Assembly: GCA_903884185.1 (NCBI GenBank)
Contig: CAISDV010000171.1
Span: 1,729 to 65,728 of the forward strand
From: an uncultured Chitinophagaceae bacterium
Lineage (GTDB): Bacteria; Bacteroidota; Bacteroidia; Chitinophagales; Chitinophagaceae
Reading direction: 5' to 3'
Length of the DNA: 64,000 nt
Below the pieces are notes generated by a model. It ran no database searches. It was given only the letters and a program-made list of their open reading frames with translations, and had not been told where the DNA came from. The translations under genes were made by a program, and so were the position numbers. Within the stretch, counting starts at the first letter, position 1, and each line of letters begins with the position of its first letter. Of this stretch, positions 1,336-57,701 are shown piece after piece.

Positions 1336-2436
1336 CTATTTGGGCGCTCTACGGTAGAGAGCGATCACCACAAATACAAAAATGATATTTGGTGTCCAGG
1401 CCGCTAATATCGGAGGGAAATTTCCTTTGGTGGAAAAGACGGTTGAGAATTTATCAGCCAGTATGAACAAAGCGGCAATGATCAATCCCATGGCGAGATG
1501 CAGCCCACTACCTCCCCTCACTTTTCTGCCCGCAACAATGGCGCCGATAAGTGTTAGCAGGATAACTGTGACGGGGGTGGCATCCCTCCTCCCCATCTCC
1601 ACTTTTAATTCATTCAGTCCTTCCGAACCACGCATTTCTTCGAGATTGATTTGCCTTCGGAGATCCGGGGATTCTAATTTATCTTTTGTGTATTTATCCG
1701 TTTTGAGATCTGAGGGACGAAAATTAAAATCTGTATTCTGTGACTGATAAAAAACAACTTTTTCATGCATTCCGTTGAAATCATGTTTCACCACATAATT
1801 CATTCTCCATTTTTTTGTAGCTGTATCCCAGAAAATATCACTCGCCCGCAAATTTTCGACCACCACATTATTCTTAATGCGATACATAAAAAAAGGCTGG
1901 CCTCTTTTAGAAGCAGTATCATAATTTCCAAGGCTTGCATAGGAAAATGAATCGACCTTGAGATAAATATTATTACTGCCGCCATTCATCCTATTGATGG
2001 CTTCATAAGATGAATTGGGATCAAAATATTTTGTTTCAAATGCCCCGCGTACCTGGTTTGACCTTGGAACAAGATAATGATTGGCGTACCATAGTAGCCC
2101 TGCCAGGAAAACACCACCGATCAAGTAAGGCCGTAACCAACGGTTGAAACTGGCGCCGCTGGCAAGTATGGCAATGATCTCGCTGCGCACCGCCATTTTG
2201 GAAGTAAAAAAGATCACGGCAATAAAAACAAAAAGCGGGAAGAGCAAAGCAGCCATGTAGGGCACAAAAGCAATATAATATTGCAGGATGATGTTTTTAA
2301 CACCAAGGTGCGACTTGACAAAATCATCTGCCTTCTCACTGATGTCCACCACAATTGCAATGACTGTGAATAAAAAGATGGCAAAGAAAAAAGTGAGAAT
2401 GAATTTCTTCAGTATGTACCAGTCTATTTTTTTCAT
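1336..2436 (-). CDS. LptF/LptG family permease (YjgP/YjgQ)
   Basis: 366 aa, ATG start, N-terminus MKKIDWYILKKFILTFFFAIFLF typical of the family, multiple TM segments with large periplasmic loop. Confidence 0.85.
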   Translation of the reverse strand: MKKIDWYILKKFILTFFFAIFLFTVIAIVVDISEKADDFVKSHLGVKNIILQYYIAFVPYMAALLFPLFVFIAVIFFTSKMAVRSEIIAILASGASFNRWLRPYLIGGVFLAGLLWYANHYLVPRSNQVRGAFETKYFDPNSSYEAINRMNGGSNNIYLKVDSFSYASLGNYDTASKRGQPFFMYRIKNNVVVENLRASDIFWDTATKKWRMNYVVKHDFNGMHEKVVFYQSQNTDFNFRPSDLKTDKYTKDKLESPDLRRQINLEEMRGSEGLNELKVEMGRRDATPVTVILLTLIGAIVAGRKVRGGSGLHLAMGLIIAALFILADKFSTVFSTKGNFPPILAAWTPNIIFVFVVIALYRRAPK

Positions 2437-2706
2437 TCTTTACAGCTAACTGCAAAGATAATTGCATAGCGGGATAGCGGGCAGAAAAGGATGTTAATTG
2501 ATTTGCTCAGGCACGCTGTCCGCCTGAGGCGGAACTTCGTAAAAAAATACACCCATGAAGATGGATGTATTAATACGGCATCATAGGTAACGGATTAGTA
2601 AGTGATGTGAAGCTAATAATAACAGGTAAGCATCAGGCTGTTTCATTGTGCAGGTGGATAAAGAAAAAATGGTTTTGCAATTATCCACATCCTGTTTTGC
2701 GGGTGG

Positions 2707-2769
2707 TTTCACGCCCGTCCGAATGGCTTAGCCGGGCGGGCAAAGACGCAAAGGAGCCAAGGCGCAAAG
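2707..2769. repeat. word-hairpin arm, family d (TTCACGCAAAGACGCAAAGG type), interrupted
   Basis: tttcacg + insert + caaagacgcaaaggagccaaggcgcaaag; degenerate partner arm downstream (about 2781-2810). Confidence 0.6.
2714..2740. mobile_element. 27-nt GC-rich palindromic mini-element nested in an intergenic word-hairpin
   Basis: CCCGTCCGAATGGCTTAGCCGGGCGGG splits tttcacg|caaagacgcaaagg; the uninterrupted string tttcacgcaaagacgc occurs at 57623. Confidence 0.6.
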
Positions 2770-2850
2770 TTATTTAGGGATCCTTGCTCTTTTTTTGTTT
2801 TGCTGTCTGGCTAAGTCTAATATTTGGGAAGGATGAGAAGGTGCAGCTAC

Positions 2851-3990
2851 TTATAAACGTTGCTTTAATTGTGGTATCATGGCAGCCTTCCATGAAAGGA
2901 AAGTATCTGCCAGGATATATTTGCGGGCCTCACTTACCAGCCAGAGATAAAAAGAAAGGTTGTGTATGCTGGCTATTTGCAAGCCGAGGATCTCATCGGC
3001 AACAAATAAATGCCGCAGGTAAGCTTTGCTATAATAATTGCTTGTTTCGCAAGGGAAACCTTCATCGATCACGGAAATATCGGTTGCCCATTTTTTATTT
3101 CTTATGTTGATGATACCCTGCGAAGTGAAGAGCATTCCGTTTCTTCCATTACGCGTTGGCATCACACAATCAAACATGTCAACACCGAGGCTGATGGCTT
3201 CGAGGATATTCCACGGAGTACCCACTCCCATTAAATAACGCGGTTTATCCGCAGGCAAAATATCACAACACAATTCAGTGAACTCGTACATCATTTCTTC
3301 AGGCTCTCCCACACTCAATCCGCCAATAGCATTGCCCGCAGCGTGTTTGGAGGCAACATATTCAGAAGAAACTGTGCGAAGGTCTTTATAAATGCCGCCC
3401 TGAACAATTGGGAAAAGATTTTGCGTATGGCCATATTTGCCCTCGGTCTCATTCAGCCTTTCTATACATGCGTCCAACCAGCGATGCGTTAACTCCATGC
3501 TTTGCTTTACATATTTGTATTCGCTGGGATGAGGCGGGCATTCATCAAATGCCATAATAATATCGGCACCAATACTTCTTTGAATGTCCATCACTTTCGC
3601 CGGACTGAATAAATGCCTGCTGCCATCAATATGAGATTGAAACATCACACCTTCTTCAGCGATCTTCCTGTTGGCGGACAAAGAAAATACCTGGTAACCG
3701 CCGCTATCGGTGAGTATGGGCCTGTCCCAACCCATGAATTTATGCAGGCCACCACAGGTTTTCAGTACTTCTATACCCGGCCGCAAATAAAGATGATAGG
3801 TATTGCCAAGAATGATCTGCGCTTTTATTTCTTCCTTCAGTTGCTGTTGTGTTACAGCTTTTACGCTACCCACAGTGCCCACAGGCATAAAGATCGGGGT
3901 CAATATCTCGCCATGATCCGTGCTGATCTTGCCCGCCCTTGCTTTCGTATGGGTATTTGTTGATTCTAATTGAAAACTTAATGCTGCCAT
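2851..3990 (-). CDS. tgt: tRNA-guanine transglycosylase (queuine tRNA-ribosyltransferase)
   Basis: Track ORF 2851..4086 trimmed to ATG at 3990 (MAALSFQLESTNTHTKARAGKISTDHGEILTPIFMPVGT); motifs TDSGGYQVFSL, LFPIVQGG, GLSVGEP. The upstream extension crosses a low-complexity repeat. Confidence 0.9.
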   Translation of the reverse strand: MAALSFQLESTNTHTKARAGKISTDHGEILTPIFMPVGTVGSVKAVTQQQLKEEIKAQIILGNTYHLYLRPGIEVLKTCGGLHKFMGWDRPILTDSGGYQVFSLSANRKIAEEGVMFQSHIDGSRHLFSPAKVMDIQRSIGADIIMAFDECPPHPSEYKYVKQSMELTHRWLDACIERLNETEGKYGHTQNLFPIVQGGIYKDLRTVSSEYVASKHAAGNAIGGLSVGEPEEMMYEFTELCCDILPADKPRYLMGVGTPWNILEAISLGVDMFDCVMPTRNGRNGMLFTSQGIINIRNKKWATDISVIDEGFPCETSNYYSKAYLRHLFVADEILGLQIASIHNLSFYLWLVSEARKYILADTFLSWKAAMIPQLKQRL

Positions 3991-4061
3991 GAATAAGTAC
4001 TGATGGTAAAAGAAAGCAAATTTACATACAAGAAAGCAAAGCATGGTATGATACCGGATAT

Positions 4062-4094
4062 ACATCGTACATCCCACATCTAACATCTAACATC
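4062..4094. repeat. 7-nt periodic stutter tract (ACATCNN)
   Basis: acatcgt acatccc acatcta acatcta acatc, in the divergent tgt / GT2 promoter gap. Confidence 0.8.
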
Positions 4095-4161: not shown

Positions 4162-5286
4162 ATGACGATACCACCCGAAACCTGGGAGATCCTGTTTTAC
4201 GTTTTTTGCGGCATCATTACTTTCCAGGTGTTTTATTACCTGATATTTTTCTGCAGGCTCGCTTTTTACAAACCCAAGGCAAGACAGGAAAATTTTGATC
4301 ATCCAGTGTCTGTGATCGTTTGTGCAAGAGACGAGGCCAATAACCTTGTGAAAAATCTACCAGGAGTATTGGTGCAGCAATACCAGTCAACCCACGAGAT
4401 AGTGGTTGTAAATGATAATTCTTTGGATGAAAGCAAGTATATATTAGACGAGTTTAAAAAATCATTCAAGAATCTCAATCACCTTGAATTAACACAAGAA
4501 GCAAAATTTATCATCGGGAAGAAATTCCCTTTGTCCATGGGTATCAAAAGCGCGAAGTATGAAACGCTGTTACTGACCGATGCAGATTGTGTTCCCGCTT
4601 CTGAATTGTGGATACAAAAAATGCAGGAGGGTTATGGCGAAGGAATTGAGATCGTATTGGGTTATGGTGCCTATCATAAAAAATCAGGCTTGCTGAATAA
4701 GCTCATTCGCTTTGAAACCTATTTTACAGCGCTCCAGTATTTTTCATTCGCACTTGCAGGCATACCATATATGGGCGTAGGCAGGAACCTGAGTTATAAA
4801 AGAGAAGTATTTATCCGTAACAAAGGGTTTTCATCCATCAACCAGATACCGAGCGGTGATGATGATCTGTTTATTAACCAGGTTGCGACAAGAAAAAATA
4901 CAGCGATCGTGATCGATCATGCGGCGCATACTTTGAGCGAACCGAAAACTTCATGGGGCGAATGGAGCCGGCAGAAATTCAGGCATTATACCACTTCTAA
5001 ATTCTATCGTGCTAAACATAAGTTCTGGTTGGGATTACATTCCATTACTTTATTCTTTTTATATCCTTTGCTGGCCGTGAGTATTATTTTTTATAACTGG
5101 TGGATGCCGCTGGCAGTGTTCGGCGTGCGCTTTTTTTTACAGGCGATGGTATATTATAGGACAATGAAGAAATTAAATGAAAAGGATCTTTGGCCCTGGT
5201 TCCTTTTCTTTGACCTGTGGATGTTCTTCTATTATATTTTCTTTGTTCCCGCCATCTGGAGAAAGCCGAGGAAGAACTGGGAATGA
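4162..5286 (+). CDS. glycosyltransferase family 2, membrane-associated
   Basis: 374 aa; VSVIVCARDEANNL, VVVNDNSLDES, TDADCVP (DxD) motifs, C-terminal TM helices. Confidence 0.8.
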   Translation: MTIPPETWEILFYVFCGIITFQVFYYLIFFCRLAFYKPKARQENFDHPVSVIVCARDEANNLVKNLPGVLVQQYQSTHEIVVVNDNSLDESKYILDEFKKSFKNLNHLELTQEAKFIIGKKFPLSMGIKSAKYETLLLTDADCVPASELWIQKMQEGYGEGIEIVLGYGAYHKKSGLLNKLIRFETYFTALQYFSFALAGIPYMGVGRNLSYKREVFIRNKGFSSINQIPSGDDDLFINQVATRKNTAIVIDHAAHTLSEPKTSWGEWSRQKFRHYTTSKFYRAKHKFWLGLHSITLFFLYPLLAVSIIFYNWWMPLAVFGVRFFLQAMVYYRTMKKLNEKDLWPWFLFFDLWMFFYYIFFVPAIWRKPRKNWE

Positions 5287-8103: not shown

Positions 8104-8140
8104 AGAGGTGCTTTTATAGGGGTCAAATATATTATTCTTT

Positions 8141-8216
8141 TCACCGCAGAGACGCAGAGACAGGGAGAAACGGGGAGATATCTCGGCGAACCTCCCCGTC
8201 TCCCCGCCTCCCCGGT
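8141..8216. repeat. word-hairpin, family a (CACCGCAGAGACGCAGAG / CTCCCCGCCTCCCC type)
   Basis: tcaccgcagagacgcagagacagggagaaacggggag ... cctccccgtctccccgcctccccggt; between the M1 peptidase start and the rsmI stop. Confidence 0.8.
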
Positions 8217-8233
8217 AAAAATTATAAAATCTC

Positions 8234-26960: not shown

Positions 26961-28109
26961 TTACTCTTTCGTCTCTCCCAGTTTAGGGCGCAGCCTTTTC
27001 GACTTACTGAAAATATTCTGTCCTTTATCAATTCCGCTGCGAATGGCTTTCTGTCGTTCCAATGGCATAGCTATGGTGTTTTTGCATTCAATACTGCAAC
27101 AACCATCATATTGTTTTGCACAATCTTCGCATTGAATAAAGAGTAAATGGCAGCCATGATTTTTACAGTTGGTATGAGTGTCGCACGACTTACCGCATTG
27201 GTGGCATTTAGCGATCACATCTTCTGTAATGCGTTCACCCAGCCGTTCATCAAACACAAAATTCTTCCCGATGAATTTGCTTGGAGCTTCGTTCTCTTTT
27301 ATTTCGCGGGCATAATTAATGATGCCCCCCTCGAGATGAAATACATTTTTAAATCCTTTATGCAGCATGTAGGCGCTGGCCTTTTCACAACGGATACCAC
27401 CTGTGCAGTACATGATGATATTGTTGTCCTCTTTGCCCTTCATCATATCCGCAGCCATGGGCAACTGTTCACGAAAAGTATCTGAAGGGATCTCCACTGC
27501 ATTTTCAAAATGTCCCACTTCATATTCATAATGATTGCGCATGTCTATCACCACTGTGCCGGGATCTTTCATCAGTTCATTCATCTTCAGCGCATTCACA
27601 TATTTTCCTTTTTGAAACATATTGAAGGAAGGGTCCCTGATACCATCTGCCACAATTTTATCCCGCACTTTAATTCGTAATACCCAGAAACTCTTACCCT
27701 GCCCGACTGAATCGTTCAGGCGGGCCTGCCCGACTGGATCGTTCAGGCGGGCCTGCCCGACTGGATCGTTCAGGCGGGCCTGCCCGACTGGGTCGTTCAG
27801 GCGGGCACCATCATCCACTGCAATATTCAATCGCAAACCATTCAATGGTTCAATAGAATATAAAAATGTTTTGAATGATTCAAATTGAGAAGCAGGTACA
27901 CTCACCTGTGCATTGATGCCTTCCTTTGCCACATAGATCCTTCCGTATACTTTGAGGGCATTCAAATGCAGGTATAACTGATCACGAAAAGCTTTGGGAT
28001 CCTCTACAGAAAAGTAATGATAGAAACTAAGCGTTACGCGCTGCTCATTTTCTTCCATGAGGCGTTGCTTGAGTTCTAAGTTATTGATGCGGTTGTGTAA
28101 TACTGCCAT
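26961..28109 (-). CDS. trhO: rhodanese-domain tRNA uridine(34) hydroxylase (UPF0176/YceA family) carrying a 36-aa repeat insertion
   Basis: Trimmed to ATG at 28109 ([33 protein letters not shown]); rhodanese active site [11 protein letters not shown], Cys-rich C-terminus; contains ARLNDPVGQ x4. Confidence 0.85.
27699..27806. repeat. 4 x 27-bp tandem repeat (CTGCCCGACTGGATCGTTCAGGCGGGC) in frame within trhO
   Basis: Units 27699-27725, 27726-27752, 27753-27779, 27780-27806 differ only at the two central positions (tgAAtc, tgGAtc, tgGAtc, tgGGtc). Confidence 0.95.
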
Positions 28110-28125
28110 GATCGCTGCAAAAATA

Positions 28126-30501
28126 CTAATTACCCCGCCCAGAAGCAAACAAAGGCAATGAAAACCTTACCCCGCTGATGGTAGAACCATTTGGCTGGAA
28201 TCCCTGGATAAAGTCTAACCTCACAATTTTAAAGATATTTTCAAGCGAGATAAACGCTTCATAATAATGCGAGTTCTTATCAATATATAAAGCATTGCCA
28301 CCGAAAACAAGGAACCAGTTGAGCCTTCTGAACCCGGGTATCTTGTTTGTGAGCAAACCATTCAAATGATATTCTGCATGTGCCGTGGTATAAACATTCG
28401 CGATATTACTGTATTGATAATAAGGCAACAATTGAAAACTGCTCAGGTATTGGCTGGCAAATACAGTTTGGTTACCGAGATAATGCTGGTAATCAACATT
28501 CGAAACATTTTTTGCATTTAAGAAACCACCCACTTCCAGGCGATAATTGAAACGGCCGCCTAATTTAAAGTTCAGGTCGTCCGACATACCCAAATGCCAT
28601 TTGGTAAAATCAGCATTACTTCCAAAAGGCCCGTTCAACCCTTCTGTAACAGATAGATTGAATGTGGGGTATTTTGAACGGATGCCGATCTTCCTGTCGG
28701 GGAACTCAATATATTTTCCACCCGGCCTCCAGGTAATATTTTCAGTGATGGCGAATTCTTTATTGGAAATGATGCTGTTAGCCAGTGGTACCCTGTCCTG
28801 GTATTGTGCAGATATGGAAGCAGTAAATCCATCACCCAAACTCTTTGAATAACCCAGGCGAAGAAAATTGGCTTCATAAATTTTAAGGTAATCGCGTTTG
28901 TAATAAAAAGTGTTTTCAAGTCCGCTGATAGGGTCTGCATTATTTACCTGGAACACTTTTCGTCCGCCGGCAAAATTAAAACTGCTGTTATATTTTGTAC
29001 CAAAATTATACCGTCCCGCAACAGAAGCATTCAGGTGCGTGTTACCAAAACCATAACGAAGAGTGGGTGTAATAGATAACGATTTTCTTCCCTCCCATCG
29101 TTTAAAATAAGTGCCTGAAAAATTGGTCACATAGCCTTCAATATTATTATAACTATCAAAACTGGTCAACAATGGGTTGATAGAAATATTGCTTTTATTT
29201 TTTTCTGAATTGAAATTTTGTCCAAACAAAAGGAGTTTGGGTATGGTTACTTTATTTCTGCGCCTGTCGAGCGAATCCATGTACCGCGGCGATTTCCTTA
29301 CCTGTTCCAGGCTATCTTTTTTCACATAATCCCTGGCCTCAGCAGGAAGCAGTGGTATTGGGCGAATGCTGTCCCAATAAGCCAGTGTTCTTTTATTAGA
29401 GCTGTCCAAAAATTTGATGATCGTATTCCCAAAGAATTTCTTTTCATACACAGGCTCAATATTGTACTTATCATACACCTGCACAAAATTTCCAAAGAAA
29501 TCAAAATTGAATATTTTACCTGCGGGATAAATGACCTGCTGTTTCATCACCCAAACATTTTTTAAAGGCACGTATAATTGCTCAATTGTAAGGGTATCGA
29601 GGAATTGCATTTGCTGTTCCTTCAATGCCGTGAGCTGCACACTTTGCAGGCGCCACTCATCTTCAACAATATTTATATAGCCTGTAAATAATGGTTCATA
29701 TTTTCTTCTCGGTATCACTTTAATACGGCTTACTTCCCTTCCATTCTCAAAAAATGTTCCTTCAAAATGATATTTATAATAATTGAGTGCATTATTAGAG
29801 ATGGGTGAAATAAAACCGCGCGGGTTAAGTCCCTGTCCTATTGAAATATTATTCTCATAAAAAGAAAAGATCTGCGGAACGCTGAAACCAAACCCACCGG
29901 TTTGCCCGCTTACTTTGGTGGATATCACTTCCACCTTTTTTTTATTCTTTCCGTCAACCGAGTAATTGGCCAATCCTTCAGAGAGAAAGATCATCTTGCG
30001 TTTGCTGGTATCGCCATCTTCAAAATCCACTGTTTCGCCCAAAAATCTTTTGGGATAATTGCGGAGTTGTAATTGCCCTTTCAGATACACTTCACACTGA
30101 AATTGTTTCAATTCATTCAAATGCTCTTCGCGTTTTTTTATTGCCTGGCGGATGATCTCATAAGCCGGGTCTTCGCCACCGCTTTTTACTGTTACATTTT
30201 GCAGGTTATATTGCTGTTCCTGTAATTGAAAATCAATTTGTGAATCTGTTTTGCCTACGGTAATCTTTTTTTCTTCGGTGGCGTAACCTACATGCTGGCA
30301 AACAAGGGTATGTTCGCCGGGTTCAATGGGCAAACTATATTGGCCCTTGCTGTTGGCGGTGGTGCCTCGTGCCGTTCCTTTAATTAAAACCGATGCAAAG
30401 GGAAGTGGTTTTCCTTTTCCGTCTTTGACAATACCGGTGATGGTAGCAGCCCAGATAAATTGGGGGATGATGAATAACAGGCAGGATAAAGTTCTTTTCA
30501 T
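28126..30501 (-). CDS. CarboxypepD_reg-like + DUF5686-type large outer-membrane-like protein
   Basis: 791 aa; signal peptide, [37 protein letters not shown] motif, long beta-rich C-terminal region. Confidence 0.75.
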
Positions 30502-36931: not shown

Positions 36932-36994
36932 GCCACAGAAACACAGAGACACAGAGGGTTGAGCCATTCTTCTGTGTTTCTGTGCCTCTGTGGC
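36932..36994. repeat. word-hairpin, family b (GCCACAGAAACACAGAGGCACAG type)
   Basis: gccacagaaacacagagacacagaggg ... ttctgtgtttctgtgcctctgtggc. Confidence 0.85.
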
Positions 36995-37552: not shown

Positions 37553-38704
37553 TTATTTCAGCATCTCTGTTAATATTCCTACTTCATCATTTGTATTAAA
37601 CGCATGCAGCACAATCCTCAACCTTTCCTTTCCTTTTGGAACAGTAGGATATAAAATAGGCCGCACATCCAGGTTATTCTCCTGTAATTTTTCTGCCAGC
37701 GTTTTTACATTTTCATTTCCTGGAATGATCACCACCTGTATCGCCGTTTGAGAAGATAATTTTTCATAAGAGATATTGGCTGATTGAAATTGCTGTATTA
37801 ATCCCTGCAATTGCTTTCTCTCCGCCTGCATGGTTGGAAATAATTTGTAAGCTTCACTGATCATCGCAACCGCATGTGGGGGCAGTGAAGTAGAATACAC
37901 AAAGCTTCTTGAAAAATTAATCAGATAATCGCGTAAAGTAGCGCTACCCAATATTACAGCACCATGGCAGCCACAGGCTTTTCCAAAACTATGCATCCTT
38001 GCAAATACTTTATTCTGCAAACCAAGATGCTGTACCAGGCCTTCTCCCCTTTCACCTATCACTCCAGTAGCATGCGCTTCATCAACCACCAGATGAGCAC
38101 TGTATTTTTCACAAAGAGCAACCAGTTCGTTCAGCGGACAAAGATCACCATCCATGCTAAACACGGTTTCTGTTACTACAATTATATTTCCTTTACTATC
38201 TCTTGTATGTTGTAATCTTTTTGCAAGTGCCTCCATATCATTATGCGCAAAAGAGAACGATTCGGCAAAAGATAAACGGATTCCATCACGGATAGATGCA
38301 TGGCATAAAGCATCGTATAAAATAGTATCGCCTCTTTGTGCAATGGCTGCGATCGATCCAATATTAGCATCATAACCGGAATTGAAGATGAGCGCAGTAT
38401 CTGATTGATGGAAAGAAGCGATTTGTTTTTCAGTTTGTTCTATCAATTGATAATTACCTGCGAGTAAACGAGAGCCTGTAGAACCGGTTGCCCCCGCCCC
38501 GCTACGCAGGTCGGGCAGGAGTTGCCCCTGCCCGACTATGTCATTCAGGCGGGGGTTACTTTCCGTTAATTTATTGTCATGTACGATACCGAGATAGTCA
38601 TTTGAGCAGAAGTCGATTTTACCTTCGGGTAGTTTTAGTTGACGAAAAGAGCCCTCTTTTTTTCGTTCATCCAGCTTTTTATATAAGAAATCGTCAGCGT
38701 ACAT
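37553..38704 (-). CDS. bioF: 8-amino-7-oxononanoate synthase family PLP enzyme with repeat-derived insertion
   Basis: 383 aa; FCSNDYLG, GSTGSRLLAGN, DEAHATG, SFGKACG (PLP lysine); about 18 extra residues PRLNDIVGQG..LPDLRSGAG between the first two motifs. Confidence 0.8.
   Translation of the reverse strand: MYADDFLYKKLDERKKEGSFRQLKLPEGKIDFCSNDYLGIVHDNKLTESNPRLNDIVGQGQLLPDLRSGAGATGSTGSRLLAGNYQLIEQTEKQIASFHQSDTALIFNSGYDANIGSIAAIAQRGDTILYDALCHASIRDGIRLSFAESFSFAHNDMEALAKRLQHTRDSKGNIIVVTETVFSMDGDLCPLNELVALCEKYSAHLVVDEAHATGVIGERGEGLVQHLGLQNKVFARMHSFGKACGCHGAVILGSATLRDYLINFSRSFVYSTSLPPHAVAMISEAYKLFPTMQAERKQLQGLIQQFQSANISYEKLSSQTAIQVVIIPGNENVKTLAEKLQENNLDVRPILYPTVPKGKERLRIVLHAFNTNDEVGILTEMLK
38493..38519. 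mobile_element. 27-nt GC-rich palindromic mini-element, inverted partner, inside bioF
   Basis: CCCGCCCCGCTACGCAGGTCGGGCAGG; separated by 7 nt from the copy at 38527; GTCGGGCAGG/CCTGCCCGAC form a perfect 10-bp inverted repeat. Confidence 0.5.
38527..38553. mobile_element. 27-nt GC-rich palindromic mini-element, same subtype and reading frame as trhO units, inside bioF
   Basis: CCTGCCCGACTATGTCATTCAGGCGGG; minus-strand translation (P)RLNDIVGQ versus ARLNDPVGQ in trhO. Confidence 0.55.
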
Positions 38705-39426: not shown

Positions 39427-39537
39427 TTACCGCAGAGTCGCAGAGACAGGGAGAAACGCAGAGAGAGCTACTGTTGCCTTAAAGGTTTACTGAATTTAGC
39501 TCTGCGAATCTCCCCGCCTCCCTGTCTCTGCGGTGAA
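39427..39537. repeat. word-hairpin, family a, complete
   Basis: ttaccgcagagtcgcagagacagggagaaacgcagagag ... ctctgcgaatctccccgcctccctgtctctgcggtgaa; between convergent miaE and the GSCFA gene. Confidence 0.85.
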
Positions 39538-39572: not shown

Positions 39573-40607
39573 TCAGCAACCCTTCAATGCTCCTTCAAAA
39601 TATTTTTTTTCTTCTTTCATATCTAAAAATGCATTAACCTTTTCAAGAGCCATCGTCTTTTCAAGATAACCTGCCAGGAATTTTTTATGCTGTGAGGATT
39701 GGGAATTAAACGGCTTATGGCTTACTGCCAGGTTGATCTCGGCAATATGTTTCATCAATTCTCTTGTCTCTTCATTCATACATGCCGCTGTAAATTTCTC
39801 CCACACATATTCTGTTGCAGCATAATTGGGATGCACCAGGTCTTCTGCATAAAAACGGTAATCACGCAGATCATCAATCACTAATTCGTATGCAGGAAAA
39901 TAATACGCCCGCTCATATTTTTCAATAAGCTGGTGTACCGCCTGTATCAATACCGCTTTGCTGCGGTTGTTTTCTATTACCCCTTCGCGTAGGTGGCGTA
40001 CCGGGCTAATTGTGAATATGATTGAAATCTTGGGATTGAATCCCGCCCGGCCATGCCGTTCGGACGGGGATTGAAGATTTTGCACCATTGCATCCAAAAC
40101 ACTGAATGTTTCTTCAGCACTTAGTAATTTCTTTTCAAACCAATCTGAGGGTGCTTTGTGGTTATTGGCTGCAACCGAACCCGGTTGTACATTGGCAGCT
40201 TTAGATGTGAGTGTATAAGTCCATGAGGAACCGAGTGTGATCATCAGGTAATCGGCCTCTTTTAAATATTGATGTGTTTCAGCAATAGAATCATTTATTT
40301 TTTTGAGTGATTCTTCAACACTCATTCCCGAAAAACGGCTATGGTGTTTCCAGCTATGCCAGGATTCGTTAAGACAGAACAGATCGTTATTGCTATAAGT
40401 TTTATTATTTATGCAATCACCCACTGCTTCTGCTACACTCACGGGGTTGAATAATATTCCGTGCGAATTTTCCAGTACATTGAATTTATGCTTGCGCAGT
40501 TTTGCGCCAATGTTTTCTGTAAAGCAGGAACCGATCAACAGCATTTTATGCTTGTGGTTGATAGGCTGATGCAATTTTTTAATATCAAATTCGAAATGAA
40601 ATTTCAT
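39573..40607 (-). CDS. GSCFA domain protein with 9-aa repeat-derived insertion
   Basis: 344 aa; LLIGSCFTENIG motif, ISPVRHL motif; PSERHGRAG encoded by the 27-nt element. Confidence 0.8.
   Translation of the reverse strand: MKFHFEFDIKKLHQPINHKHKMLLIGSCFTENIGAKLRKHKFNVLENSHGILFNPVSVAEAVGDCINNKTYSNNDLFCLNESWHSWKHHSRFSGMSVEESLKKINDSIAETHQYLKEADYLMITLGSSWTYTLTSKAANVQPGSVAANNHKAPSDWFEKKLLSAEETFSVLDAMVQNLQSPSERHGRAGFNPKISIIFTISPVRHLREGVIENNRSKAVLIQAVHQLIEKYERAYYFPAYELVIDDLRDYRFYAEDLVHPNYAATEYVWEKFTAACMNEETRELMKHIAEINLAVSHKPFNSQSSQHKKFLAGYLEKTMALEKVNAFLDMKEEKKYFEGALKGC
40042..40068. mobile_element. 27-nt GC-rich palindromic mini-element inside GSCFA gene
   Basis: CCCGCCCGGCCATGCCGTTCGGACGGG; its reverse complement matches 2714-2740 at 24 of 27 positions. 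Confidence 0.6.
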
Positions 40608-52280: not shown

Positions 52281-52290
52281 AGTGTTGTTT

Positions 52291-52377
52291 TTAACCACAA
52301 TGGCCACAAAGGATGCACAAAGAACACAAGCGGTCTTTGTGCCCATTGTGACTTCCTTGTGTTCTTTGTGGTTAAAT
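52291..52377. repeat. word-hairpin, family c, complete
   Basis: tttaaccacaatggccacaaaggatgcacaaagaacacaagcgg ... tctttgtgcccattgtgacttccttgtgttctttgtggttaaa; 11 nt after the ppx stop. Confidence 0.85.
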
Positions 52378-52588
52378 AAAACTCATTTGCAACTGTCTGT
52401 AATTAGTATTATTTTGTCCGGTGAATTCAGGCACATGAGTTCTCCCTAACCGGTTGTGAAGTGAATAAATGCCCTGGCATACGTACGGTGTTCACCGATT
52501 AATGAACTTTATTCACCCATATTCTCCGTTAAAGGCTTGTGTACCTGGTTAGTTTTGATTTAATAACCCTCCATAAAAATTAAACTGT

Positions 52589-57161: not shown

Positions 57162-57167
57162 ATTATT

Positions 57168-57241
57168 GCCACAGAAACACAGAGGCACAGAAGAGAGAAG
57201 GAATGATTGAACTATTTTCTGTGTTTCTGTGCCTCTGTGGC
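57168..57241. repeat. word-hairpin, family b
   Basis: gccacagaaacacagaggcacagaag ... ttctgtgtttctgtgcctctgtggc; starts 7 nt after the ALDH stop. Confidence 0.85.
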
Positions 57242-57291
57242 AGCCTTTTAAAATTGCAAAAAACATTTTATAATTAATAAAAAATACAAAT

Positions 57292-57622: not shown

Positions 57623-57701
57623 TTTCACGCAAAGACGCCAAGTTAAAAAAGGCGCCAAGTTGTTTCCGATTTTTTTTGCTCCTTTGTCTCTTTGCGTGAA
57701 A
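57623..57701. repeat. word-hairpin, family d, complete
   Basis: tttcacgcaaagacgccaag ... ctcctttgtctctttgcgtgaaa; starts 2 nt after the cupin stop. Confidence 0.85.

Follow-up and report, generated by a model that had tools for sequence, protein, structure and literature searches.

What is the short GC-rich segment that lies between the tgt and lptF/G genes in a 64,000-nucleotide stretch of DNA from an uncultured Chitinophagaceae bacterium (hereafter the window), and did it arrive there by insertion into an older repeat? Coordinates re-read from the window place tttcacg at 2707-2713, a 27-mer, CCCGTCCGAATGGCTTAGCCGGGCGGG, at 2714-2740 and caaagacgcaaaggagccaaggcgcaaag at 2741-2769, all within the spacer (2437-2850) that separates tgt from the lptF/G permease gene. 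The relevant features are as follows.

1336..2436, minus strand: lptF/G permease gene
2546..2571, minus strand: terminator-like hairpin and, after it, a T run (tgt strand)
2705..2713, plus strand: GGTTTCACG, base of the family-d left arm, severed from the remaining arm by the insert (alignment, L107)
2714..2740, plus strand: type-A 27-nt element CCCGTCCGAATGGCTTAGCCGGGCGGG (sequence, fold, more than 106 external loci with the same motif)
2741..2775, plus strand: rest of the left arm of family d, built from the words (8 nt) CAAAGACG CAAAGGAG CCAAGGCG CAAAG... (alignment, L107)
2776..2812, plus strand: possibly what decay has left of the loop and right arm in the family-d copy at 2707 (comparison with 57666-57701)
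2851..4086, minus strand: tgt (queuine tRNA-ribosyltransferase), its stop codon approximately 110-140 nt upstream of the 27-mer
57623..57701, plus strand: intact family-d word hairpin, the paralogous empty site (fold z = -3.1)
8129-8230, 36932-36994, 39439-39532, 52284-52382, 57167-57242 and 57623-57701: word hairpins in the window

The left arm of the intact hairpin, tttcacgcaaagacgccaag, starts at 57623, 1 nt past the stop codon of the upstream ORF, and the hairpin ends at 57701. Once the 27-mer is removed, the joined segments 2707-2713 and 2741-2775 align with 57623-57665 at 35 of 43 positions, the aligned stretch comprising 7 nt before the junction and 36 nt after it. The score of this deleted form, 44 against 15.1 +/- 2.2 for shuffles (maximum 25), marks the best match in the whole 64 kb; with the 27-mer kept in, the alignment to the same arm begins only at the last base of the insert, g2740. 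A metagenome scan with a pattern accepting either the filled or the empty state, GGTTTCACG-N{0,27}-CAAAGACGCAAAGGAGCC, returned one match (L107), in the zero-gap, i.e. empty, form. This match is a strong family-d hairpin on an unrelated metagenome contig (RNA fold -59.9 kcal/mol, z = -6.4), and it is identical to the window at 30 of 30 nt across the junction, GGTTTCACG^CAAAGACGCAAAGGAGCCAAG. The claim of the sequence-only reading that deletion of 2714-2740 restores a family-d string is thus upheld at both sites, each of which is a paralogous copy of family d, as distinct from the tgt-lptF spacer in a sister strain, which would be orthologous. The proteins of the window lack close relatives, the next-best homologue being 69% identical.

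Since the copies at 57623 and L107 are both without the 27-mer, the 27 nt are not a normal part of family d, and the refuting condition named in the sequence-only reading does not hold for them. The 27-mer is also younger than the family-d copy at 2707, as had been proposed, because it was inserted into that copy; its relative age follows logically from insertion. The interrupted copy is a decayed half-hairpin, which folds no better than shuffles (z = -0.17) and whose right arm, compared with 57666-57701, is without the terminal CGTGAAA. The insertion point lies in a stem arm; nested copies elsewhere are usually found in loops. The 27-mer at 2714 is very probably a discrete mobile insertion. 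The long hairpins of 8-nt "words" (CACAGAGN, GCAGAGAC, CACAAAGN, CGCAAAGA) are seen at several other sites in the window, and the two that were checked, at 52284 and 57623, begin within a few bases of a stop codon.

The outer stem of the type-A element is 8 bp long, one of its pairs being T.G. A 3-nt bulge (AAY) on the 5' side and a small inner stem-loop complete the structure, whose DNA folding energy is -6.5 kcal/mol; on the complementary strand the T.G pair becomes a C.A mismatch and the energy is -4.8 kcal/mol. The superfamily that includes this element is made up mostly of 27-nt units, their arms being CCYGYCCG...CRGGCGGG; relatives of 20-27 nt can be added to it, and a third subfamily, also of 27 nt, combines type-A arms with the interior ACYGAGTCATC. 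The hairpin architecture is common to the subfamilies and their inner stems differ. Stems and bulge are almost invariant and the apical triplet varies freely, with no relation between loop triplet and target at the several sites inspected. Solo halves are rare, those seen being decayed or nested copies, and a search for a parental element with matching half-ends turned up none.

Two type-A copies are present in the window, against 0 expected. The second, at 40042-40068, is the sole other type-A match and differs from CCCGTCCGAATGGCTTAGCCGGGCGGG at 3 positions, all interior. A search with the arm pattern yielded eight 27-nt superfamily units in the window, seven of them in frame within genes (GSCFA, TrhO, BioF) and in both orientations relative to the coding regions, so that the unit at 2714-2740 is the only intergenic one. 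The intragenic units are listed below.

27698..27805, plus strand: four head-to-tail type-B 27-mers (CCTGCCCGACTGRRTCGTTCAGGCGGG) in the TrhO/rhodanese gene 26961..28148 (minus strand)
38493..38519, minus strand: type-B-like 27-mer encoding PDLRSGAGA, in the BioF-like gene 37553..38704 (minus strand)
38527..38553, plus strand: type-B 27-mer encoding PRLNDIVGQ, in the same BioF-like gene
40042..40068, minus strand: second type-A copy, in frame in the GSCFA-family gene 39573..40607 (minus strand), encoding PSERHGRAG

In the GSCFA protein, PSERHGRAG forms one clean 9-residue block between LQS and FNPK, flanked by conserved columns and missing in 19/19 aligned homologues (65-71% identity); because the extra block is exactly 27 nt, there is no room for a target duplication. 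The four units of the TrhO/rhodanese array abut directly and in frame, encoding ARLND(P/S)VGQ four times, and a solved homologue has approximately 37 residues fewer at this site. Removal of both 27-mers from the BioF-like gene leaves ...ESNRQLATGSTGSRLL... and a length equal to that of its homologues. The two BioF units stand in opposite orientations, 7 nt apart, and both directly follow a plus-strand GTTGCC (GGTTGCC^AGTTGCC^GGTTAC). A PRLNDSVGQ block was also noted at the same site in a 68%-identical homologue (P0242); the site may be an insertion hot spot, or the insertion may be old. The length and GC content of the element are such that stop codons can arise only from the three bases of the apical loop, and this, together with a length of 9 codons, explains how copies survive within ORFs.

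Outside the window, the motif CCCGTCCGAANGGCNNNGCCGGGCGGG (23 specified positions) was found at more than 106 loci, of which L001-L106 were examined, all in metagenome-assembled genomes (MAGs). Cultured isolates are absent from the matches listed for L001-L106, and the MAG-only occurrence of the 27-mer may be a sampling effect. Carriers in the Bacteroidota include Chitinophagaceae, Saprospiraceae, Flavobacteriaceae and MAGs assigned to Sphingobacterium and Daejeonella; those in the Planctomycetota include Candidatus Scalindua and other Brocadiaceae; and further carriers belong to Ignavibacteria, Neomarinimicrobiota, Peribacteria and Saccharibacteria, such that the family spans at least five phyla. 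This taxonomy is confirmed by the agreement of flanking genes (Scalindua-like ArgRS at L004, Chitinophagaceae-like genes in the window). Up to 12 loci come from a single MAG among the matches listed, most external loci carry a single 27-mer copy, and 31% of external copies lie within open frames of at least 450 nt. All 23 specified positions recur unchanged in distant phyla, and such near-identical copies point to horizontal spread of the element, of its mobiliser, or of both. The motif was not found in viral contigs, phage records or plasmid records, and a full-text literature search for 27-mer strings gave no relevant paper. The nested insertion at 2714 is one conspicuous member of an abundant family of 27-nt hairpin inserts that extends across phyla.

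Filled and empty sites in sister genomes were found at loci other than 2714, namely in the argS genes of Scalindua, where the ArgRS proteins compared are 93-96% identical to that of L004 (L004 against S. sediminis: 92% by BLASTP, 96% in the alignment). At site A, CAGAATTT^GAAATCCC is unbroken in S. sediminis (L108) and carries exactly 54 inserted nt in L004, consisting of one 27-mer nested after position 9 of another. At site B, L108 and L111 contain a 27-nt relative, CCTGCCCRACTAAGTAGTTTAGGCGGG, where L004 and L110 show an exact 27-column gap. Both sites thus display presence and absence at the nucleotide level with no target duplication, and differences of exactly 27 or 54 nt leave no room for a duplication of the MITE type. 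Together with the GSCFA copy, which adds exactly 9 residues, these alleles bear out the earlier view that insertion proceeds without target duplication; the equally early view of a discrete unit with sharp edges is confirmed by the recurrence of the exact motif in 70 unrelated flank contexts of other genomes. Units are gained and lost in exact multiples of 27 nt, free of duplication, in many contexts.

Two further observations were made in Scalindua. At the argS site after CTTGTTCC, L108 and L111 carry a 27-nt insert and a more distant lineage (P0132) carries a different 9-residue insert, PARSGRLGR, which suggests either recurrent hits or an old insert that has since diverged. Two Scalindua regions of 90% identity (L008 and L023) differ by a 77-nt and an approximately 265-nt composite block, each with a 27-mer (L008 4861-5125 against L023 2594-2623; L023 7164-7242 against L008 837-838), suggesting that larger units of nested hairpins are also gained and lost.

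Flanks were analysed in 70 distinct contexts of the exact motif. The right flank has C at +1 in 50/70 and A at +2 in 44/70 contexts, often as ^CAA or ^CAG (a CA(R) preference), and the left flank is without consensus at positions -8..-1, T being rare at -1 (5/70). In 20% of contexts the two flanks could form a stem of at least 6 contiguous bp, compared with 2.9% of random positions, and copies are over-represented at hairpin apices and within the unpaired interiors of related copies. Where a related hairpin is the host, insertion is always in the unpaired interior, as in CCTGCCCGA^CAAATGGCAGGCGGG, CCTGCCCGAATAGGTA^CAGGCGGG, CCCGTCCGAACGGCA^TTGCCGGGCGGG and CCTGCCCGA^CCAAGCC... Word hairpins resembling family d also host the 27-mer elsewhere (L007, L039, L051). 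Both Chitinophagaceae and Scalindua loci (L028, L029, L038, L073, L088, L005 and L058, also L035 at 1880-1910) contain another small repeat, CCCCTCTCC-loop-GGAGAGGGG with TTAGGGGTGAGGT after it; it often hosts a 27-mer at its apex, and empty copies of it exist too.

These junctions bear on the possibility that the units spread without a dedicated enzyme, by template switching, gene conversion or slippage between hairpins or short direct repeats. Such a process would fit the 1-nt junction ambiguity (C) seen in 71% of contexts, the existence of head-to-tail arrays, and the sites that lie between short direct repeats in GSCFA (TTCAATC^ATTCAATC), BioF (GTTGCC^AGTTGCC^) and L081 (CAGGTTG^CAGGTTG). 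Pre-existing flanking direct repeats are, however, not generally enriched (3/68 compared with 1.4% of controls), most insertion sites have no homology to the element, and the constancy of 23/23 motif positions in distant phyla would be hard to achieve without a sequence-specific partner, so that we consider enzyme-free spread improbable. The perfect 7-nt direct repeat around the 27-mer at L081 (position ~1803) is the only case resembling a target duplication.

If the 27-mer is a mobile element with a partner enzyme, RAYT-like Y1_Tnp genes would be obvious candidates, being present in 6/106 loci of up to 8 kb, a frequency well above our expectation for a low-copy gene. A RAYT as the cognate transposase was nevertheless rejected: the five RAYT genes inspected (L048, L004, L035, L044, L001) are flanked by other hairpins or inverted repeats, comprising GTAGCGGAA..., GTTCCCACG..., GGTTCAATCTTGTAGATTGAACC and one 29-nt terminal inverted repeat, and the nearby 27-mers are nested in the RAYT hairpins, lie at a distance or, in the case of a 22-nt relative, sit inside the RAYT gene. 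At L048 (3380-4160), the RAYT-like gene lies between GTAG-containing hairpins (GGAAGGCTAAAGCCTTCCGCTACA...TGTAGCGGAA...), and the downstream RAYT-associated REP is split by a 24-mer that is itself split by a 27-mer, giving three nesting levels, with an intact copy of the split REP about 100 nt further on. In a Hanamia RAYT-like gene at L001, delimited by terminal inverted repeats of 29 nt, GCCGCCGTCTGGTCTCCTGACCAACGGCA, a 22-nt relative (reverse complement of CCTGCCCGTCCGGTCAGGCGGG) has entered immediately ahead of the HUH motif (4840-4870, minus strand) and shifts the reading frame. Clustering of neighbouring genes across the 106 loci recovered only ubiquitous families (AAA/sigma-54 regulators, ABC transporters), and no mobilising gene could be tied to the 27-mer in the loci examined.

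Most likely, an exact 27-nt block integrated between G2713 and C2741, without target-site duplication, and its target was the left arm of a family-d word hairpin already present 3' of tgt. Duplication-free gain and loss in 27-nt units, the flank preference, the bias for hairpin apices and loops and the conserved stem and bulge would fit best if the element moved in a folded single-stranded form that an HUH/Y1 enzyme of the IS200 or RAYT type cuts and rejoins in trans; read on the opposite strand, it would insert 3' of YTG, a placement comparable to that of IS200/IS605 elements, which lie 3' of a short target. Orientation bias was not clear relative to either local GC skew (60/48) or gene strand (64/43), loci of 8 kb providing a weak test, and this counts against an IS200-type mechanism, which would predict such a bias. 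Single-strand movement mediated by an HUH enzyme is therefore offered as a best guess only, and a rather doubtful one.

Whether the hairpins have instead been multiplied by selection for a host function, as protein- or RNA-binding motifs, terminators or mRNA stabilisers, can be judged from their setting. The terminator-like hairpin at 2546..2571 on the tgt strand, the nearest such site to 2714-2740, puts the 27-mer in what is probably the 3' untranslated region of tgt, and many copies elsewhere also lie just downstream of genes; near-invariant stems and bulge around a free apical triplet, and the rarity of solo or decayed halves, would likewise be expected of a functional motif. Against this, 7/8 window copies are in coding regions in both orientations, near-identical genes differ in presence or absence of a copy, no intrinsic terminator was called at 2714-2740 on either strand and no T run follows the 2714 copy, and an Rfam scan of 2300-3000 gave sub-threshold chance matches only, with no matching family. 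Selection for a host function is accordingly a very unlikely origin of the family, and the copy at 2714 is most likely without host function. Reverse transcription of a small hairpin RNA would account for one strand folding better than the other, the T.G position being a G.U pair on one strand only, but copies occur in both orientations relative to genes, poly-A or priming signatures are lacking, and none of the ORF families that recur in the neighbourhood was noted as a reverse transcriptase, leaving an RNA intermediate with scant probability. That the GC-rich 27 nt are an optional internal module of family d, with no insertion at all, is barely credible given their presence in 70 unrelated contexts and inside genes and their absence from the other two family-d copies, even though only three copies of this thinly sampled family were seen.

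We therefore favour insertion, and consider it likely that the segment at 2714-2740 is a tiny non-coding mobile element, a GC-rich imperfect palindrome inserted exactly into an older family-d hairpin. If so, few DNA units for which filled and empty sites directly document a precise insertion would be smaller, the mobility of single units of REP-like repeats being mostly inferred and not observed. The family would provide a testable system, with a 27-nt substrate of known junctions, a measurable target preference and natural polymorphisms in sister genomes. With carriers as distant as Chitinophagaceae, anammox Scalindua and candidate-phyla bacteria, one has to ask how so short a sequence, and its mobiliser, pass from one phylum to another. 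For annotation, elements that add 9-36 residues to GSCFA, TrhO, BioF and ArgRS give rise to spurious differences between orthologues. It is tempting to speculate that the 27-nt units and their relatives of 20-27 nt form an undescribed minimal class of mobile DNA, found in at least five phyla and spread by machinery other than RAYT/REP, be it a horizontally transferred hairpin-loop integrase or a hijacked universal replication or repair activity. This remains a tentative proposition that we hold to be possible more than probable; were it true, exact 9-codon blocks in essential genes would be a natural source of peptide-loop insertions.

Among known systems, the REP/REPIN sequences mobilised by RAYT proteins share with the 27-mer the form of imperfect GC-rich palindromes of 20-40 nt in high copy number, the three G-C pairs at the stem base and the lack of target duplication (PMC3733652, PMC6006769, PMC3116915). 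The short imperfect palindrome in high copy number that defines REPs is found here as an 8-bp stem and eight superfamily copies in 64 kb, and both kinds of repeat sometimes lie in frame in genes and inside other palindromes. Indeed, Di Nocera et al. (PMC3733652) described REPs that lie in frame within ORFs, tRNA synthetase genes among them, as well as REPs inserted in small palindromic targets; Quentin et al. (PMC6006769) described RAYT genes, belonging to a subclass common in Bacteroidetes, that contain in-frame REP insertions. Unlike REPs, however, the 27-mer lacks a 5' GT[AG]G foot and starts with CCCG, GTAG being present instead in the hairpins that flank RAYT genes; unlike a REPtron, it does not flank RAYT genes in the five loci inspected. 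Moreover, 27-mers are mostly single units and not inverted doublets, 7/8 window copies are intragenic whereas REPs are predominantly extragenic, and the sequence is near-identical in different phyla, whereas the REPs of each lineage evolve together with a RAYT specific to it.

The CGTC super-family of REPs (Di Nocera et al. 2013), which includes Neisseria dRS3 and Rickettsia RPE-4/-6, is similar to the 27-mer in total size, in its occurrence in several phyla including Bacteroidetes and in having some members in frame in ORFs, and no dedicated transposase has been found for it (PMC3733652). Its hallmarks are a CGTC tag that stays unpaired, a stem of 8-9 bp starting with A-T pairs, a 4-5 nt loop and a CCA tail (PMC3733652, where Rickettsia palindromic elements are also mentioned). 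In the 27-mer, by contrast, CGTC is paired within the stem, the stem starts with CCC/GGG and the interior measures 11 nt.

IS200/IS605 elements and PATEs resemble the 27-mer in their hairpin-defined ends, the lack of target duplication and insertion beside a short specific motif, but they have two distinct subterminal hairpins and a length of at least 100 nt; the strong lagging-strand bias of IS200/IS605 has no counterpart seen for the 27-mer, in what is a weak test. A MITE, with terminal inverted repeats, a target-site duplication and a size of 70-300 bp, was discarded in view of the 27-nt unit and the lack of duplication, as was a CRISPR repeat, the copies being solitary, nested or directly abutting, with no spacers.

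Palindromic inserts tolerated in protein-coding genes are exemplified by RPE-1 of Rickettsia, which at 100-150 nt is longer than the 27-mer. The GC clusters or "byp" elements of yeast mitochondria are palindromic, GC-rich in an AT-rich genome and located in coding genes; byps are left out of the protein by translational bypassing, whereas each 27-mer is read like ordinary coding sequence and yields 9 residues. Closest in size and nesting, on a comparison by description and not by sequence, are the small dispersed repeats SDR1-8 of Nostoc/Anabaena, reportedly presented by Elhai et al. in 2008 in Genome Res 18:1484 as hairpin-associated units of 21-27 nt nested in one another. Their mobility is reportedly deduced from presence or absence in otherwise homologous regions. 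We know of no mobilising mechanism for these repeats and, to our knowledge, they have been reported only in Nostocaceae; the 27-mer family differs in spanning at least five phyla and in being frequent inside genes. In its behaviour, the 27-mer resembles REP elements or the small dispersed repeats of Nostoc.
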